NCBI GenBank assembly: GCA_003223135.1
Contig: QHXX01000038.1
Span: 27,672 to 91,671 of the forward strand
DNA from: Acidobacteriota bacterium
Lineage (GTDB): Bacteria; Acidobacteriota; Polarisedimenticolia; Gp22-AA2
Direction of reading: 5' to 3'
DNA: 64,000 nucleotides
Shown: positions 35,183 to 42,965 of the stretch, one piece after another
Position numbering within the stretch: position 1 is the stretch's first letter
How the letters are laid out: every line of letters starts with the position of its first letter
The notes under the pieces: generated by a model
What the model was told of the DNA's origin: nothing
Seen by the model: the letters and a program-made list of their open reading frames with translations, nothing else
Databases searched by the model: none
Translations under genes and position numbers: made by a program

Positions 35183-38100
35183 TCAGCGCCCTTCGAGTCG
35201 CCGGGTGTTCCAGGTCTTGCGGTACTCCCGGTGCTCGGTGTCGTCCGGGTACGCCTCGCCGTCCGGGTACGGGTAGGCCGACATGCCATGGAACGGCAGC
35301 GGCTCGACGGTCTCCGGGTAGGCGGTGTGCGGATCCATGTCCTTGCAGTAGCCGTTGGCGTACAGAAGGAAACTGCGCGTCCACCCTTTCGGCAACTTCG
35401 GCAATCCCTGCGCGGGGAACTCCAGGGTGACCTCCTCCCCCTTGCCGAAGATCACGAAGCGATCGTCGGTGCGGGTGAGCAGGTCGGTGACCCGACCGAA
35501 GCGCGTGTAGTCGCCTGTCGTGACCTTGAACGGCTGCGTGTTGTCCAGGATCCCGTAGTCGTAGATCTTCGGTTCGCGACCGTCCGGGCTGTGCTCCCTC
35601 GGGAAGCCTCTGCGGTGCAGGTGCGCGCCGTTCGCCTTGATTTCGCTCACCTTCACCGACTCCGCCATCGGCGCCTCTGCGAGCGGCTCCGCGATGAAGA
35701 TCTGATCCCAGAAGAGGCGCATGTTGGTGCGCAGACGGAGGCGGCGGGAGGAAAGCGGCGCCAGGCCGGAGAGATCGACGCTGATCATGCGCGGCAGCCC
35801 CGGCGGGAAGCCCATCGGGTCGAGGACCGGTCGGAAGACACGCTCGTCCGTGTCCTCCATCTCCAGGACGGGCGCCGTCAGCCGGACGCCGGCCTGGTAG
35901 GCGGCGTAGTTCGAGGACGAGTATTCGAAGTCGACCCAGCCGTAGAGGAAGAGGACCGGGCGCCGCAACCGCGTGACGGCGTCGGGGAACTCGAGCGTCA
36001 GGTGGTGCATCTCGGCGAATCCCGCCCGGCGATCCAGACGAAAATCGTCCGGATACGTCCGATCGATCGTGAGGATCCTGTCGGTCACCTCGCGGTTGTG
36101 GTGGTCGGTGGCGCGGGACGGGAAGAGGCGAGCCCCTTTCTCGACCGCCAGGACGCGGTACGGCTGGCGCTCCTTGCCGCCGAACGCCCCGAGAGGATAG
36201 ACATCGATGTCCTTCGGGTGATCGAGGGCGAGGAGCTTCGTCTCGTCCAGGTAGGTCACCTCCTCCAGGTTCTCCAGCACCTGGATCACATAGGCGCCGT
36301 CGCGCGGCGCGAGCTGAGACGGCTCGACCTTCACGTACTCCTCGGGTTGAGGCGTGCCGTACACGCCCGGCGCCGTCCACAGACCGAGCCCGCCGACGCC
36401 CAGGAAGTCGGTCACGAAGCCGTACTTGTTTCCGTTCCAGGCAAACAGGAGCGGACACGACGACCCCTTGCGATCGAGCTCCGTTTCGTCCACCCTCTGC
36501 CCCGCCGGCACGTCCATCTCGGCCTGCAGGACGCCCCCGGGCCACAGCAGGCGCACGACGTCGGCCAGCGACCGCCCGCCCAGGCCGAAGTGCGCCGTGG
36601 GCGGGGATTGCGACAGGTAGCCGGCGCCCGCCTGCACCTCGCGCCGCTGCCAGGTCGGGCCGGCAAGCGCTTCGATTTTGGTTCCGATGCCATCCTTGTT
36701 GCTGTTCAAGCCGTGCGGGGCGACCTCCAACCATCGGTTCCGATTGCCGCCCTCGTTACGCAGCAGGATCGGCGGGCCACCATTCTCCGTCACGATCAGG
36801 TCGAGATCGCCGTCGCCGTCCAGGTCGGCGGCCGCCGCCCCGCGGCCGTCCTTCACCGGAATCTGCCGCAGGCCGGCCTCGTCCGAGGCGTCCTTGAACC
36901 GGCCTTCGCCATCGTTCAGGTAGAGCAGAAGCTCCGACCCCGCGACGAACAGGTCCAGATCCCCGTCGTTGTCCGCATCGAACAGGACCGCGCCGAACAA
37001 CGACGCCCCCTTCGGCTTCGGGATCTCCTGCGACGTGAACGTCAGGTGCCCGCCGTTCAGGTAGAGACGCAGCGGAGCGTCGGCCCCCGCGGCGAACACG
37101 AGATCGGCCAGGCCGTCGCCGTCGACGTCGCCCGCCGCCACGCCGCGCCCGGCGCCGCGTGACGCGAGTCCCACCCCCCGTCCGCGCGCGGCCAACCCTT
37201 CTTCCCGGCGGTTCTCGAGCAGCGTGTCCTGTCCGCCGGCGGAGGAGACCACGGCATCGAGATCGCGGTCGGCGTCGAAGTCGGCGAACACCGACCCCAC
37301 GGTGCCGCCGGGCGGTCCGGAGAACTTCATCTCCGCCGCGGCCGGTTTGAATGCGCCGTCGCCCCCATTCAGGAGGAGGGTCGAAGAGACCGGGGTCTGC
37401 GAGCCGGGCGGTGGCAGCCGACTGACGAAGAGATCGAGGTCGCCGTCGTGATCGACATCGGCCCAGGAGGCCCCGAGGGCGAACCCCTTGATCGAGGCGC
37501 CGGCCTTCCGCGTGATGTCAGCGAAGTGTCCCTTCCCGTCATTCTCGAACAAGGCCCCGCCGCCCTGCCGGGTCAGGTACAGGTCCGCGTCCCCGTCATT
37601 GTCGAAGTCTCCCAGGACCGCCGCCATTCCCAGGCCTTCGAAGACGACACCCGAGGCCTGCGTCACGTCCTCGAACGTGAGGTCGCCCTTGTTGCGATAG
37701 AGGGCGGGTCGCGCCCTTCCGTCGGCCGAGGCGTTGGCGAACACCAGGTCGGGCTTCCCGTCCCCGTCGAAATCTCCGACCGAGAGGCCTGAACCGTAGC
37801 GCGCCGCCCGCGCCCCGGGGCCTCCGTCGCCGGAGGCGGGGGGACGCCCAGGCTCACCTCCCGGGCCTCCGTGCCGGAACGTGACGCCGGAGGCCCGCGT
37901 GGCGTCGCTGAAGCGGATGACAATCGGCCGGGCCTCGGCCTTCGGGCCGCCCAGCGCCGCGTAGTCGGTGATGACGAGCGCATAGCGACCCGCCTCGCCA
38001 TACTGGTTGCCGGTCGGGACCGCGAATTTCGGATTGGCCGACAGCTTCTGGTAGACGGCCATTTCCCTGTCGCCCTCGGTGCGTTTCCCGGACTGCAGGA

Positions 38101-38650
38101 GCGCACGCGCGAGCTGGTAACGGATGGACATGCTGTTTGGGTCGAGCTGGCGGGCGCGCTTCAGGGACGAGATCGCCGGGTCGAACTCCCGCTGGCGGGC
38201 GTGCAGGAGCCCCAGGTTGTACAGGATGTCCGCGTCTTCGGGGTCGAGGGCCCGGGCCTTCTCGAGGGCGACGATCGCCTCGGCCGTCTTTCCCTCGTTC
38301 TTGAGGACGAGACCCAGCCCGTAATGCCCCTGCGGCAGCTTCGGGTCCAGACGGATCGCCTCGAGAAACGCCTCCTTCGCCGCCGCCGTCTCGCGGGAAT
38401 AGAGGGCGGCCAGGCCCAAATTGACGAAGCCGGGCGCCCAGCCGGGAGCGCCCTCCGTCACCTTCCTGAATTCCTCCATTGCCTGCGCGTGCTTGTACTG
38501 CTCCATCTGGGCGGCGCCGCGGTTGTTGGCATGAATCACGTCGTCCAGGCTCGCGACTTTCGCCAGCGGCGGCTCGACCCCGGCACCCATGAAGAGGAGA
38601 AGACAGGCCGCCACGCCCGACCCCAGGCCTGCCGCCACGAGGCTTTTCAT
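35183..38650 (-). CDS. CRTAC1-family lipoprotein: N-terminal TPR repeats, FG-GAP/VCBS beta-propeller repeats, ASPIC/UnbV domain and about 500-aa C-terminal extension
   Basis: Lipobox-like MKSLVAAGLGSGVAAC; TPR repeats (aa about 40-230); repeated DxDxDGDxDL Ca-binding FG-GAP blades; ASPIC/UnbV signature (NKDGIGTKIE...GYLSQS...HFGLG); start ATG overlaps upstream stop (ATGA). Confidence 0.75.
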   Translation of the reverse strand: MKSLVAAGLGSGVAACLLLFMGAGVEPPLAKVASLDDVIHANNRGAAQMEQYKHAQAMEEFRKVTEGAPGWAPGFVNLGLAALYSRETAAAKEAFLEAIRLDPKLPQGHYGLGLVLKNEGKTAEAIVALEKARALDPEDADILYNLGLLHARQREFDPAISSLKRARQLDPNSMSIRYQLARALLQSGKRTEGDREMAVYQKLSANPKFAVPTGNQYGEAGRYALVITDYAALGGPKAEARPIVIRFSDATRASGVTFRHGGPGGEPGRPPASGDGGPGARAARYGSGLSVGDFDGDGKPDLVFANASADGRARPALYRNKGDLTFEDVTQASGVVFEGLGMAAVLGDFDNDGDADLYLTRQGGGALFENDGKGHFADITRKAGASIKGFALGASWADVDHDGDLDLFVSRLPPPGSQTPVSSTLLLNGGDGAFKPAAAEMKFSGPPGGTVGSVFADFDADRDLDAVVSSAGGQDTLLENRREEGLAARGRGVGLASRGAGRGVAAGDVDGDGLADLVFAAGADAPLRLYLNGGHLTFTSQEIPKPKGASLFGAVLFDADNDGDLDLFVAGSELLLYLNDGEGRFKDASDEAGLRQIPVKDGRGAAAADLDGDGDLDLIVTENGGPPILLRNEGGNRNRWLEVAPHGLNSNKDGIGTKIEALAGPTWQRREVQAGAGYLSQSPPTAHFGLGGRSLADVVRLLWPGGVLQAEMDVPAGQRVDETELDRKGSSCPLLFAWNGNKYGFVTDFLGVGGLGLWTAPGVYGTPQPEEYVKVEPSQLAPRDGAYVIQVLENLEEVTYLDETKLLALDHPKDIDVYPLGAFGGKERQPYRVLAVEKGARLFPSRATDHHNREVTDRILTIDRTYPDDFRLDRRAGFAEMHHLTLEFPDAVTRLRRPVLFLYGWVDFEYSSSNYAAYQAGVRLTAPVLEMEDTDERVFRPVLDPMGFPPGLPRMISVDLSGLAPLSSRRLRLRTNMRLFWDQIFIAEPLAEAPMAESVKVSEIKANGAHLHRRGFPREHSPDGREPKIYDYGILDNTQPFKVTTGDYTRFGRVTDLLTRTDDRFVIFGKGEEVTLEFPAQGLPKLPKGWTRSFLLYANGYCKDMDPHTAYPETVEPLPFHGMSAYPYPDGEAYPDDTEHREYRKTWNTRRLEGR

Positions 38651-40296
38651 GCTCCCATTCTGAGGACGCGCCCGGCCGCCTGCGGACGGAACTCCCTGCC
38701 GGCCACCACGCGCCGGCCGTTGACCAGGACCTCGTCGATCCCTGCCGCGAAGCGCCGAGGCTCCGTGAACGTCGATTGATCGGCGACGGTGAGCGGATCG
38801 AAGAGCACCAGGTCGGCCTTGCACCCCGCCATCACACGCCCCCGGTCGCGCAGTCCGAGCCTGTCCGCGGGCAGCGATGTCATCTTGCGCACCGCCTCCT
38901 CGAGACCGAGGAGCTTCCGCTCGCGGACGTAGTGCCCCAGGACGCGCGGAAAGGCGCCATACGCCCCGGGATGCGGGAACCCCTTGCCGATCTCCCAGGC
39001 GTCGGAGACGACAGCGAGCCTCGGGCTCCGGAGCAGTGGCAGCAACGGATCGTCGCTCGTCTCGTCGCCGGAGACTCCGAAGATGAGCTGCGTGGCGACA
39101 CCAGACTCTTCCAGGAGAACGTCCGACAGCGCGTCGAACGGATCCTGGCCGCGGCGCCGGCCGATCGCGGCAATCGTCAGGTGCTCGTACCCCTTGTTGC
39201 CCGACCCATCGACATGCGCCAGTCGGATATGGTCCCAGCCGCACTCGCGGGCGATGTTCATGGTGAAGCGACCCTCCCCCGCCCACGGCGGCCACACGGG
39301 CGAGGTCTCCGCGACCTCCCGCTTCATCCGGGCACGCAGGACCGGGTCGCGCAGCCGCTCCAGGAAGGCCGCGACACCGCCGTCGAGCGACCAGGGGGGA
39401 TAGAGCGCCAGCATCGTGGTGCAGACCGCCGTGTAGGGGATGACGTCCGCCGTCATCTCGATCCCGTCGCGCACCGCCCGCTCTTCGGCCGCGAGGATGT
39501 CGGGTGTTCCGGACCAGGCCCGGCTGCCGACCGTCTCGACGTGGGAGTGATGCACGGCCGCCCGCGCGCGCCGTCCCACCTCGATCAGCTCGTCGACGGC
39601 GTGCGCCAGCGTGTCGCGGCTGCTTCCGCGCTGGTGGAAGGCCGCGAAGCCGGACGCCGCGGCCGCCGCCCGCGTCACCGACACCAGCTCGTCGGTGTCG
39701 GCGAACTGCCCGGGCGGATAGATCAGGCCGAAGGAAACGCCATACGCCCCCTCTTCCATCGCCTGGCTCACCAGCCGATCGAGCGCGCGCTGCTCGTCCG
39801 TGTCCGGCCGCCCGGAGCGCGCACCCATGGCCATCAAGCGCAGCGGACCGTGCGCCACGAGCGACGCCACGTTGACGAGCACACCCTGGGTTTCCAGATG
39901 TCCGAGGTACGAGGCGAACGTTTGCCAGCTCCAGGAGACCTCTTCAGGGGTGATGAAACCGCACACCCGCTCGACGTCCGACTTCGTCGTCGCCGAAAGC
40001 GGAACGCATCCGATGCCGCAGTTGCCGAGGAGCTCCGTGGTGATCCCCTGTCGCACGCGCCCCTCGAGGAGGCGCGCCTGATCGTGAAGCGGCAGGGTGA
40101 AGCACAGATCCGAATGGGAGTGCAGGTCGATGAAGCCGGGGGCCACGACGCGACCGCCTGCGTCGATACGGGGTGCTTCGACCTCGAGCCGCGACTCGAC
40201 GGCGGCGATCCGGTCACCCAGGATGCCGACGTCGGCCCTGAAGGCGGGGCGCCCGGTGCCGTCGATGACCTGTCCGTTGGCGAGGATCAGATCCAG
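38647..40296 (-). CDS. D-aminoacylase-family amidohydrolase (N-acyl-D-amino-acid deacylase-like) with non-canonical start
   Basis: APGFIDLHSHSD metal-binding motif, TIM-barrel amidohydrolase core, C-terminal beta domain; N-terminal beta-sandwich (PTLDLILANGQVIDGTGRPAFRADVGI) is in frame upstream of the ORF-track GTG (40146), but the frame has no ATG/GTG/TTG back to a TAA stop; CTG at 40296 preceded by GGAG is the best candidate start. Confidence 0.7.
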   Translation of the reverse strand: MDLILANGQVIDGTGRPAFRADVGILGDRIAAVESRLEVEAPRIDAGGRVVAPGFIDLHSHSDLCFTLPLHDQARLLEGRVRQGITTELLGNCGIGCVPLSATTKSDVERVCGFITPEEVSWSWQTFASYLGHLETQGVLVNVASLVAHGPLRLMAMGARSGRPDTDEQRALDRLVSQAMEEGAYGVSFGLIYPPGQFADTDELVSVTRAAAAASGFAAFHQRGSSRDTLAHAVDELIEVGRRARAAVHHSHVETVGSRAWSGTPDILAAEERAVRDGIEMTADVIPYTAVCTTMLALYPPWSLDGGVAAFLERLRDPVLRARMKREVAETSPVWPPWAGEGRFTMNIARECGWDHIRLAHVDGSGNKGYEHLTIAAIGRRRGQDPFDALSDVLLEESGVATQLIFGVSGDETSDDPLLPLLRSPRLAVVSDAWEIGKGFPHPGAYGAFPRVLGHYVRERKLLGLEEAVRKMTSLPADRLGLRDRGRVMAGCKADLVLFDPLTVADQSTFTEPRRFAAGIDEVLVNGRRVVAGREFRPQAAGRVLRMGA

Positions 40297-40309
40297 AGTG
40301 GGCTCCGCG

Positions 40310-40609
40310 TCAGCGGCCGAAGCGAGGTCGTTCGCCCAGGTGCCCGATCGAATGGAAACGATCCTTGTTGACCTTTAGGTTATTGGCTCCCTGGCTGCAG
40401 CCGGTGCACCCGGAGTAGGTCTCGTTGAAGTGACGGTAACAGCAGTCCATGAGGTTGTACCAGACGCCGTATTTCCAGCAGAAGAAGTTGGCGTCCCGGG
40501 GACGGAAGTTGCACTTGAGGACATGGCGTCGCAGGCCCCGGCCGGTCTCGTCGGTCCCCTCGGGCTCTACCGGATCGATGGTACGCAACTGCCCCCTCGC
40601 TGAGCTCAT
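40310..40609 (-). CDS. small Cys/aromatic-rich hypothetical protein (99 aa, C-x10-C-x11-CC-x10-C-x2-C)
   Basis: MSSARGQLRTIDPVEPEGTDETGRGLRRHVLKCNFRPRDANFFCWKYGVWYNLMDCCYRHFNETYSGCTGCSQGANNLKVNKDRFHSIGHLGERPRFGR; composition (N, F, Y, W, K, C) is unlike GC-frame artefact ORFs; TGA stop lies 11 nt upstream of the amidohydrolase candidate start. Confidence 0.5.
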   Translation of the reverse strand: MSSARGQLRTIDPVEPEGTDETGRGLRRHVLKCNFRPRDANFFCWKYGVWYNLMDCCYRHFNETYSGCTGCSQGANNLKVNKDRFHSIGHLGERPRFGR

Positions 40610-40721
40610 GCGGGCATTCTAATGCATTCCCGGCGCGCGAGCACCCCCACCGCGCCCGTTCCGGGGCTACGGGGCCTGCGGCCCGGGGGCGCTGAACCTC
40701 CCCGAAGAAGAGAGTGTCGAA

Positions 40722-41732
40722 ATGCCGCGCCAGGGGACAGTCGTCGTGTACGTGGAGGCGCCCCGGCGCATCGCCGGCCCGGTTCTCAAGACCTTCGAGG
40801 AGCAGACCGGCATCGAGGTCAGCGCGACGTACCGGGAAAACCTCGGGGACCAGTTTCTGTCGACGCTGAAGTCGCAGGCGGAGCGGGGGGCGGTCGACGT
40901 TTTCTGGGGCGAGACTCCGCTCTCGGCGTACGACATTGTGGACGCCGGCCTGGCGGCGCCGTTCCGGCCGGCGGGGGCGCGCCCTGTGCCGGGACAATAC
41001 CGCGACCGGGAGTTCCGCTGGATCGGCTTCGCCGTCAACCCCCGGGTCATCGTCTACAACACCAACCGCATGAAGCGCGAGGAGGCGCCGACAGAGACCA
41101 CCGACCTCACGAGGGCTCCCTGGGCCGGCAGAGGGGCGATGCCTCGCATCGCCACAGGCCCCCCGGCCTTTCACGCCGCGGCCCTGTTCACGCTCTGGGG
41201 CCCGGAGAAGGGCCGGGCGTTCTTCGAAGCGCTGCGCGCGGACGGCGGTACGCGCATCGTGGAGGACGACCGCGAAGTGCGCCGTCTGGTGTCCGAGGGA
41301 GGGGCGGCCTGGGGGCTGATCGGACTCGATCAGGCGATCTGTGCCAAGCGCGAGGCCGAGCCGGTCAACGTCCTGTTCCCCGATCGACTCGGTTCGGGAG
41401 CGATCGTGCCGCCGCACGTGGCGATCCTTCTTCGAGGCGCTCCCCACGCCGCCCAGGCCAAGGGACTGTTCAGCTACCTGTTCAGGACCGAGTCAGCCTG
41501 GGTTCTGGGACAGAACGACTGCGCGCTCGTCACGCTGCTTCCCAACGTTCCCCGACCTGACTGGGTCCCTGCGCTCGGCGGGCTCAATGTCGCCCAGGTC
41601 GACCCCGAGGCAGCCTGGAAGGTCTATCGAGCCAACGCCCCTTATTTTTCCTCCTGGGGGGCGGAGCAGGGGCCGACGGCGGCACCCCCGATCCGGCCGC
41701 GGGCGGCGCTCGACCCTGCGCCACGGCCTTGA
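40722..41732 (+). CDS. ABC-type periplasmic-binding-protein fold (Fe3+/thiamine/polyamine SBP family) protein lacking a signal peptide
   Basis: TVVVYVEAPRRIAGPVLKTFEEQTGIEVS ... FWGETPLSAYD pattern of FbpA/ThiB-type SBPs; in-frame upstream is closed by TAA with no alternative start, so no signal peptide; GAAGAAGAGAG RBS. Confidence 0.65.
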   Translation: MPRQGTVVVYVEAPRRIAGPVLKTFEEQTGIEVSATYRENLGDQFLSTLKSQAERGAVDVFWGETPLSAYDIVDAGLAAPFRPAGARPVPGQYRDREFRWIGFAVNPRVIVYNTNRMKREEAPTETTDLTRAPWAGRGAMPRIATGPPAFHAAALFTLWGPEKGRAFFEALRADGGTRIVEDDREVRRLVSEGGAAWGLIGLDQAICAKREAEPVNVLFPDRLGSGAIVPPHVAILLRGAPHAAQAKGLFSYLFRTESAWVLGQNDCALVTLLPNVPRPDWVPALGGLNVAQVDPEAAWKVYRANAPYFSSWGAEQGPTAAPPIRPRAALDPAPRP

Positions 41733-41879
41733 CGGTCTGACGATCGCCTGACGGGCGTATCGCCGCAAACCCGCGTCAAATAGGGTTTTTTCACGTTGCC
41801 GCCCGATTTTTTGGGTGGTATAGAATACGCGCAGCCGATTCGGGAAAGGAGCGACCTCCGGGCCCGCCGGGGGTTTTTC

Positions 41880-42965
41880 ATGCAGGGAGAGGTCCAGCCG
41901 AAACCGCCGCGATCGCCCGCGGTGGCTACGCGGAAGTTTCGCATCTTGATCGTCGACGACGACCGGGACAGCGTCGATCTGCTCGCCGAGTGGCTCACCA
42001 TGGGCGGCTACGAGGTCACGCACGCCCGGGACGGCCAGGAGGCGCTGCGCCGGATCCAGACCGATCGCCCCGACCTCGTCCTTCTCGACCTGTTGATCCC
42101 GCCCCCGGACGGGATGCAGGTGATGCGTACCATCAAGCGCGACCGCCTGCTCTCCACCATCCCGGTCGTCGTGATGACCGTCAAGCGGGACGTCAAGAGC
42201 AAGGTCGAGTGCCTCAAGAGCGGCGCCGACGATTTCATCGTCAAGCCGTTCCACTTCGACGAGCTGGATGCCGTCCTGCGCTCGTCACTCAAGAAGCGCT
42301 ACCTCTACACCTCTTTGGAGCGGGCCAACCAGCAGTTGCGCGACGCCAACGAGCGGCTCCTGAAGCTGACGGTCACCGACGAACGCACCAACCTCCTGAA
42401 CGATCGCTACCTGAGGCGCCGGCTGTCCGAGGAGTTCAAGCGGGCGCAGCGCTACGGCACGCCGCTGTCCGTGGCCATGCTCGACCTCGACCACTTCAAG
42501 CAGGTGAACGACAAGTACGGGCACGACTGCGGCGATCAGGTGCTGCGCGAATTCGCAAAGCTCCTGACTGAGAACGCGCGCACCACCGACATCGTGGGGA
42601 GGTATGGCGGCGAGGAGTTCCTCATCGTCCTGCCCAACACCGACGGCATCCGCGCCGCCATCGTCGCCGAGCGCATCCGCAAGGCGGCCGACGAGCACAT
42701 CTACAAGTACAAGGAGTTCCTGGTGCGGCTCACCGTGAGCGCCGGTGTCGCCTCCTCCCCCGCCAACACTCAGGTTCGGGACGAGAACGATCTCCTGAAG
42801 GCCGCCGACCAGGCGCTCTATCGCGCCAAACAGGTGTCGCGCAACCGGGTGATCGTGGACCGGGCCTCGATGCCGCCGGACGTCCTCGAGGGGGACCTGT
42901 CGTCGATCTTCAAGGCCTCATACGAGGACAACCTGGGTCGCGATCGCGATCGGGACGAGAGCTAG
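41880..42965 (+). CDS. response regulator receiver-GGDEF diguanylate cyclase (PleD-like)
   Basis: REC domain (ILIVDDD...DLVLLDLLIPPPDG...KSGADDFIVKP), GGDEF domain with intact GGEEF (RYGGEEFLIV) and RxxD I-site region. Confidence 0.9.
   Translation: MQGEVQPKPPRSPAVATRKFRILIVDDDRDSVDLLAEWLTMGGYEVTHARDGQEALRRIQTDRPDLVLLDLLIPPPDGMQVMRTIKRDRLLSTIPVVVMTVKRDVKSKVECLKSGADDFIVKPFHFDELDAVLRSSLKKRYLYTSLERANQQLRDANERLLKLTVTDERTNLLNDRYLRRRLSEEFKRAQRYGTPLSVAMLDLDHFKQVNDKYGHDCGDQVLREFAKLLTENARTTDIVGRYGGEEFLIVLPNTDGIRAAIVAERIRKAADEHIYKYKEFLVRLTVSAGVASSPANTQVRDENDLLKAADQALYRAKQVSRNRVIVDRASMPPDVLEGDLSSIFKASYEDNLGRDRDRDES

Follow-up and report, generated by a model that had tools for sequence, protein, structure and literature searches.

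Acidobacteriota belong to the most abundant bacteria in soil, and they have received scant experimental characterization. Among the systems described so far, the Wbl proteins of Actinobacteria, which are confined to that one phylum and occur in bacteria where leaderless transcripts are common, offer the first comparison for the small Cys-rich protein analyzed here. Both groups consist of cytoplasmic proteins of about 80–120 aa that are found in one phylum and carry four invariant Cys residues, an aromatic-rich core and a charged tail. However, the Cys spacing in the new family (C-x11-C-x11-C-x2-C) differs from that of Wbl proteins (C-xn-C-x2-C-x5-C), the G[VI]WGG turn of Wbl proteins is missing, the Pfam model PF02467 is not matched, and there is neither sequence nor fold similarity to Wbl. 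A second comparison is with small Zn(Cys)4 proteins (zinc ribbons, rubredoxin-like knuckles and treble-clef fingers), in which, as here, four Cys residues are the sole invariant polar ligands and one CxxC knuckle leads to a helix. Zinc ribbons and rubredoxin-like proteins have two CxxC knuckles on beta-hairpins, whereas the small protein has just C68-x2-C71, with C44 and C56 as single residues. Finally, the gene resembles those of PqqA, MftA and SCIFF, which are RiPP or cofactor precursors with a conserved core, in that a short ORF opens a gene string and encodes a product that varies at its N-terminus and is conserved toward its C-terminus, but the product is three to four times longer, is predicted to fold, has no maturase and has neighbors that vary by lineage.

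Identification of the Small Gene and Its Homologues

The gene was found on the minus strand of a 64,000-nucleotide stretch of Acidobacteriota DNA (hereafter, the window) at 40310..40609 (ATG 40609-40607, TGA 40312-40310). It encodes a protein of 99 aa with Cys residues at positions 33, 44, 56, 57, 68 and 71, and re-translation gave a sequence and a spacing (C-x10-C-x11-CC-x10-C-x2-C) identical to those in the initial annotation of this DNA. The protein has a molecular mass of 11.5 kDa and a pI of 9.2. Its maximal Kyte-Doolittle hydropathy over 15 residues is 0.32; having no hydrophobic stretch, it should contain neither a signal peptide nor a membrane segment, as had been stated for the signal peptide. 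Many long chance ORFs fill this high-GC window, and the small ORF stands apart from them by its composition and GC content: the latter falls to 0.547 in the conserved core (40350-40499) versus about 0.70 around it, a dip imposed by the amino acid sequence through its N, K, Y, F, W and M residues. This dip agrees with the earlier remark that the composition was unlike that of the spurious ORFs.

A homologue search, which had been proposed as a check, was carried out on 5.8 billion proteins and yielded 72 homologues (E-values from 5e-60 to 9e-22, 46-91% identity, 86-134 aa), all of them unnamed and without a Pfam domain. An exhaustive HMMER scan with a family profile gave 65 clusters at 50% identity, nearly all of 65-110 aa, and two profile searches gave 630 and 229 clusters at 90% identity. 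Comparison with 25 orthologous loci over 53 ungapped codons showed dN/dS values of 0.14-0.53, with third-position changes in excess and an intact reading frame in all 25 loci. The initial annotation had named poor conservation and a disrupted frame as the signs of a spurious ORF; the frame proved to be conserved and intact. It is thus virtually certain that 40310-40609 on the minus strand is a real, strongly constrained gene, and its product is very probably a member of a previously undescribed family of proteins of 65-134 aa.

No described family could be assigned to it. The window protein had no match at E-values up to 1 in Pfam-A 2025 or NCBIfam r20, 62 diverse members had no consistent match in Pfam or NCBIfam, and PADLOC 2.0 and PHROGs v4 likewise gave none, in keeping with the initial description of the ORF as unannotatable. 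A sequence-profile search of the PDB matched no chain at E-values up to 10, and no fold match was found. The motifs dismissed at the outset (CxxCH, CDGSH, rubredoxin, ZAS and YkgJ CxxCxxCC) remain excluded. The family therefore represents an undescribed domain, probably a new small Cys4 fold.

Members of the family come so far solely from metagenome-assembled genomes (MAGs) and metagenome contigs. The named sources are mostly MAGs labeled Acidobacteria, Acidobacteriota, Terriglobia or Candidatus Polarisedimenticolia, and each organism-named member either belongs to an Acidobacteriota-labeled record or shows the Polarisedimenticolia-type gene order; as far as named sources show, the family is thus so far restricted to Acidobacteriota. 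Four contigs (DATNEZ01, DASRAU01, DASRJX01 and DASRAN01; loci L011, L023, L024 and L026) bear the labels Binatia, Verrucomicrobiia, Cryosericum and Patescibacteria, and one of them also contributed a named protein to the 72 homologues. Since these four share the Polarisedimenticolia-type gene order over about 12 kb, with neighbors 64-78% identical, their labels are probably binning or labeling errors. A borderline relative (P0132, 160 aa; E-value 1e-5) was found in a 76-kb Logan/ENA contig from a low-GC source. In this protein the Cys core lies between Lys/Arg-rich tails (KKKKRRKKKK and RIIKRRKKK) and the QG..N motif is missing; it could be a remote relative that binds nucleic acids, or the match could be due to chance. 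A search of the literature on Polarisedimenticolia yielded no mention of the small protein.

Conserved Core and Predicted Structure

Column conservation over 245 family members delimited a core domain of residues 36-81 (40367..40504, minus strand). Ten residues are invariant over the 245 sequences (F42, C44, Y51, C56, R59, C68, C71, Q73, G74 and N77) and six are nearly so (D41, W50, D55, T64, R36 and G67), giving the signature DFFC-x6-WY-x3-DC-x2-R-x4-T-x3-C-x2-C-x-QG-x2-N for a core of about 50 residues. The first 30 or so and the last 15 or so residues are variable and subfamily-specific. The variable N-terminal tail (approximately residues 1-29; 40522..40609, minus strand), delimited from the alignments, is Arg-rich, contains a loose hRxhEP motif (LRTIDP in the window copy), and is predicted to be disordered (pLDDT 42-47).

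The initial annotation had listed six Cys residues. All six are present, but just four belong to the invariant core of the family: C44 (40480-40478), C56 (40444-40442), C68 (40408-40406) and C71 (40399-40397), all on the minus strand. The other two are subfamily traits: C57 (40441-40439, minus strand), within the core, occurs in 100% of the subfamily of the window copy and in 0% of the proteins elsewhere, and C33 (40513-40511, minus strand), just upstream of the core, in 88% and 31%, respectively.

AlphaFold2 was run twice, once for the full-length protein (73 sequences) and once for residues 30-99 (128 sequences). The same topology was predicted each time, a hairpin at residues 42-51 (strands 42-44 and 49-51) followed by three helices (53-62, 72-80 and 82-87). 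Core pLDDT values were 74-87 in the full-length run, in which the N-terminus was disordered, and 82-87 in the shorter one. According to these models, the core would consist of a beta-hairpin and three short helices, in which C44 ends the first strand, the first turn of helix 1 contains C56, and C68-x2-C71 forms a knuckle leading into helix 2. With four invariant Cys residues within a span of 28 residues in a cytoplasmic protein, one metal site is the simplest reading, and we consider it likely that the small protein has a metal or redox center. The spacing and invariance of the four residues suggest that they would hold a single metal center, most likely a structural or redox-sensitive Zn(Cys)4 site or, alternatively, an Fe-S cluster; a mechanism based purely on thiols would be compatible with the sequence as well.

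Expression Signals Upstream of the Small Gene

A -10-like hexamer, TAGAAT, was located at 40616..40621 on the minus strand, 6 nt upstream of the ATG, and no Shine-Dalgarno sequence precedes the gene. The arrangement TAGAAT-N6-ATG occurs once in the window versus 0.03 occurrences expected. Of the 66 distinct loci of the subfamily, 63 have a box of this kind 6-9 nt ahead of the ATG (TAGAAT in 54, TACAAT in eight and TAACAT in one). In Actinobacteria and Deinococcus-Thermus, a TANNNT motif about 10-12 nt upstream of the start marks leaderless genes (PMC3160421). Judged by this criterion, the position of the TAGAAT box and the lack of a Shine-Dalgarno sequence lead us to infer that the small gene is transcribed from this -10 box as a leaderless mRNA. 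In the other subfamilies the small gene is preceded either by a TATACT box at a distance of 28-50 nt or by a Shine-Dalgarno sequence, and its transcript would thus be leadered, unlike the genes described in PMC3160421; leaderlessness would therefore be a trait of the lineage of the window copy and not of the whole family.

A scan for consensus sigma-70 promoters found no -35/-10 pair, and the -10-only signal was seen solely through the comparative alignment. An Rfam scan of 38000-42000 gave sub-threshold chance matches alone, with no riboswitch or leader RNA. The box lies in a palindrome (GCATT-AG-AATGC; 40614-40625, minus strand) that is part of gaatgcattagaatgc, and the palindrome GCATTAGAATGC is contained in the intergenic region 40610-40721. 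The palindrome around the -10 box is kept in the closest clade (e.g., L006, L009-L011, L062 and L072) but not throughout the subfamily, and it could be an operator.

In locus L001 (7954-8267), the JGI call of the small protein begins at an internal ATG, for a product of 88 aa; a product of 104 aa results from the conserved start (MSATDPLK), which comes 8 nt past a TAGAAT box.

Start Codon of the Downstream Amidohydrolase Gene

The next gene downstream (38647..40296, minus strand) codes for a D-aminoacylase-like amidohydrolase of 549 aa with a putative CTG start at 40296-40294. It matches Pfam Amidohydro_3 (PF07969; E-value 3e-33) and the D-aminoacylases 1M7J (2e-70, aligned from residue 2) and 3GIP (2e-66) of the PDB. 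Against the NCBIfam model PRK09061 it scores 193 bits, below the cut-off of 340. The stop codon of the small ORF had been placed 11 nt before the start of this gene; the actual spacer has 13 nt (cgcGGAGcccact) and is followed by the CTG. The GGAG that had been noticed in between was found at 40303..40306 on the minus strand, as a Shine-Dalgarno sequence within the spacer.

CTG is a rare initiation codon in bacteria and is ignored by standard pipelines. The frame of the amidohydrolase contains no ATG, GTG or TTG before the GTG at 40146, which is well inside the conserved N-terminal domain. The codon aligned to the window CTG is CTG in 46 of 54 distinct loci. No in-frame ATG, GTG or TTG lies upstream before a stop in 26 of these 46, and among the remaining 20 the closest canonical codon is mostly found 13-100 codons upstream, inside the small ORF. 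Six of the 54 loci have CTC at the aligned position, with a TTG or GTG 1-4 codons upstream, and the same codon is GTG in L015 and TTG in L087. A GGAG or GGAGG is present at -10/-11 from the CTG in most loci, and it is from the CTG residue onward that the enzyme resembles solved D-aminoacylases as well as all orthologues. Taken together, the alignments point to initiation of the amidohydrolase at this conserved CTG. The enzyme is truncated by about 50 residues or more in existing calls, which start at GTG 40146 in the ORF list of the window and at TTG 8396 in the JGI copy from L001.

As no canonical start was available, a fusion of the small ORF and the amidohydrolase by frameshift or read-through was also considered. 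It was rejected, given that the relative frame of the two genes varies (offsets 0, +1 and +2), the gap between them ranges from 2 to 114 nt, and the Shine-Dalgarno-CTG unit travels with the amidohydrolase.

Gene Neighborhood in the Window and in A-Type Loci

The small gene is the first of a same-strand string, bearing out the initial description of it as heading a cassette. It is followed by the genes for the D-aminoacylase-like Amidohydro_3 protein, a TPR/FG-GAP/UnbV_ASPIC protein (about 1160 aa), an ABC ATPase, an ABC-2 permease and an isocitrate/isopropylmalate dehydrogenase. An SBP gene and a response-regulator-GGDEF gene are divergent from this string.

The family was divided into subfamilies, of which the Polarisedimenticolia-type one, with a DCC motif, is here called A-type. 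The amidohydrolase gene directly follows the small gene in 59 of 61 A-type loci, and the SBP gene is upstream in 57 of 60. In the two exceptions, L014 (10291-10515) and L077, the amidohydrolase gene has been lost and the small gene has been kept, followed directly by the TPR/FG-GAP/ASPIC gene. A block of about 12 kb is collinear across the class and includes the housekeeping isocitrate/isopropylmalate dehydrogenase gene; the A-type linkage may therefore partly reflect common descent and not function. A further check had been suggested, namely whether every homologue is followed by a D-aminoacylase-like gene: this is so for the 59 A-type loci, but it fails in the other subfamilies, where an adenosine deaminase gene, an HAD phosphatase gene or no gene on the same strand is found. 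The tie to the D-aminoacylase-like gene is a habit of one lineage and not a property of the family.

A TATAAT box is present downstream of the small gene in L014, L019, L020 and L027, a sign that the following gene may have a promoter of its own. A response-regulator-GGDEF gene is found near the small gene in two subfamilies (window, 40722-42965, plus strand; L113:4366-5659; L028:2404-3694). In A-type loci it is divergent and placed behind the SBP gene, and B-type loci have it on the strand of the small gene, after an Hpt gene; the A- and B-type proteins are 38% identical. A connection with c-di-GMP is conceivable.

Gene Neighborhood in Other Subfamilies

In B-type loci the order is Hpt, response-regulator-GGDEF, a SelW-like selenoprotein, the small gene, adenosine deaminase, a gene coding for an unknown protein, and an ABC transporter. 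All 11 B-type loci that came from the metagenome and genome scans have the adenosine deaminase gene downstream, as does L113, and the gene product exceeds the cut-off of TIGR01430 with 227.7 bits. The E-type small gene also precedes an adenosine deaminase gene, which is the first recognized same-strand downstream gene in three of four loci; in L089 an unassigned ORF comes directly after the small gene, and in L101 the adenosine deaminase gene follows an inserted DUF4301 gene.

D-type loci contain one or more redoxin genes, in some cases mscL, a gene for a D-Cys-desulfhydrase-like PLP enzyme, a DUF2085 gene, a gene for an unknown protein, the small gene and an HAD gene, the last being downstream in eight of 12 loci from the scans and in L115. 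In C-type loci, a redoxin gene and the PLP enzyme gene precede the small gene (with a 4-nt overlap in L114), and a convergent TPR gene lies downstream in L044, L051 and L114; the remaining C-type contigs either stop some 0.5 kb or less from the small gene or lack a recognized downstream gene. AhpC/TSA-redoxin and D-Cys-desulfhydrase-like PLP enzyme genes are thus in the operon of the small gene in both the C- and D-type loci. All four F-type loci consist of the small gene and an HAD gene, divergent from an asd-lysC-dapB-dapA-dapD operon. Two patterns recur: the small gene comes first, usually with a hydrolase gene directly behind it, and a thioredoxin-fold thiol or selenol protein is encoded in the same gene cluster in three subfamilies. 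The downstream enzymes were also examined for a shared metabolic theme, such as purine salvage or D-amino acids, but none could be supported, given that the HAD genes score below all NCBIfam cut-offs and the neighbors are heterogeneous.

The SelW/Rdx-like gene of B-type loci codes for 72-74 aa and is located between the response-regulator-GGDEF gene and the small gene, as in L113 (5760-5984, plus strand) and L028 (3802-4023). It is also present in L033, L034, L035, L036, L037, L038 (minus strand), L039, L040 and L042. An in-frame TGA, the presumed selenocysteine codon, occurs in a YC-x-x-U-NY motif and is kept in all 11 loci with the gene. A gene on the opposite strand separates the SelW-like gene from the small gene in four of the 11 loci (L034, L035, L036 and L040), and in L038 the SelW-like gene itself is on the opposite strand.

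Discussion

The best overall explanation of these data, to which we give a little less than an even chance, is that the small protein, a member of a constrained new family, works alone as a regulator or adaptor that depends on a metal or on redox state; the regulator or adaptor role taken by itself is possible but doubtful. According to this proposal, the small gene would head operons for salvage-type hydrolases (Amidohydro_3, adenosine deaminase and HAD phosphatase), often beside thioredoxin-fold partners. In the lineage of the window copy, ribosomes finishing the small ORF would be 13 nt from the GGAG-CTG of the D-aminoacylase-like gene, a distance at which the two genes are probably co-expressed. 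The small protein itself would act in the cytoplasm on its own, depending on a metal or on thiol redox state, and this is the weakest step of the proposal. The downstream family changes among Amidohydro_3, adenosine deaminase and HAD and is sometimes absent, and no fusions to enzymes occur among about 900 clusters; this favors a regulator or adaptor over a dedicated chaperone. The initial annotation had suggested a metal-binding chaperone: metal binding is plausible, but a chaperone dedicated to the amidohydrolase is unlikely, because the downstream gene differs outside the subfamily. The median pI of the subfamily is 9.6, and outside it just 39% of members have a pI above 9, which weakens a general nucleic-acid-binding reading.

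The recurrent position of a hydrolase gene directly downstream, often 1-13 nt away or with overlapping stop and start codons, could instead reflect a physical partnership. The small protein would then be an accessory subunit that delivers metal to, inhibits, activates or stabilizes the D-aminoacylase-like, adenosine deaminase or HAD enzyme. The next same-strand gene codes for a hydrolase in five of the six subfamilies, and the spacing is tight: 13 nt in the window, 10 nt in L113 and 1 nt in L115, with TTGA or GTGA overlaps in L005, L016 and L013. Each subfamily has its own kind of C-terminal tail, which changes along with the type of enzyme encoded downstream. Amidohydro_3 proteins and adenosine deaminases are both metal-dependent TIM-barrel amidohydrolases, which also speaks for a partner subunit. 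However, the downstream enzymes belong to three unrelated or distantly related families, HAD enzymes using Mg and having a different fold, and in C-type loci a hydrolase is missing downstream. The small gene persists in L014 and L077 despite loss of the amidohydrolase, a TATAAT box separates both genes in some loci, and a fusion of the domain to an enzyme was not found among about 900 clusters. On balance, a partner subunit is unlikely, although it deserves to be kept in mind.

Equally unlikely is an Fe-S or thiol-switch redox sensor analogous to Wbl proteins, working with thioredoxin-fold (seleno)proteins and binding the transcription machinery. This reading overlaps with the stand-alone regulator or adaptor that we prefer, differing mainly in the identity of the cofactor. 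It is consistent with the four invariant Cys residues in a small aromatic-rich domain with charged tails, with the SelW-like CxxU gene close by in B-type loci and the redoxin genes in C- and D-type operons, and with the confinement to one phylum, as in Wbl. Against it are the Cys spacing, which is not the Wbl pattern, the absence of a match to the Pfam Whib model or, even at E-values up to 10, to any PDB chain, and the absence of a redox gene adjoining the window copy or the F-type copies. Somewhat less probable again is a more elaborate version, in which a phylum-specific sensor of new fold would exchange reducing equivalents, sulfur or selenium with its SelW-like or AhpC/TSA partners and thereby switch the expression or activity of the downstream salvage hydrolase.

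The possibility of a precursor for modification, raised in the initial annotation, has fared worse. As a RiPP-type precursor, the protein would comprise a variable leader and a modified Cys-rich core exported by the downstream ABC transporter. The variability of about 30 N-terminal residues ahead of a conserved Cys-rich C-terminal part, and the ABC ATPase and ABC-2 permease genes downstream, would suit such a role. However, no radical-SAM, YcaO, lanthipeptide-type or peptidase-ABC gene was found in the context examined in any lineage, and no NCBIfam precursor model was matched (SCIFF, MftA, PqqA, NHLP and Nif11 among them). Moreover, the core is nearly invariant across the phylum and predicted to fold, F-, C- and D-type loci have no transporter beside the gene, and the transporter encoded in the window belongs to the DrrA/ABC-2 type instead of being a protease-domain peptide exporter. 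A precursor is thus very improbable. A spurious ORF, of the long kind that arises abundantly by chance in high-GC windows, has a negligible chance in the face of hundreds of homologues that share invariant W, Y, C and F positions, a frame intact in every locus, the excess of third-codon-position changes and the GC dip.

With ten invariant residues, a putative leaderless transcript and neither a curated relative nor a fold neighbor, the small protein is a clean candidate for a new domain family, and the novelty of this work is that new small-protein family. The analysis also corrects annotation, since gene callers truncate both the small gene (88 versus 104 aa in L001) and the amidohydrolase gene. 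Its practical importance is moderate as long as the proposed function is deduced from genes and genomes; being soluble and of 11.5 kDa, the protein should lend itself readily to determination of its metal content, structure and partners. If the phylum-specific sensor reading were true, the family would be the Acidobacteriota counterpart of Wbl in Actinobacteria.
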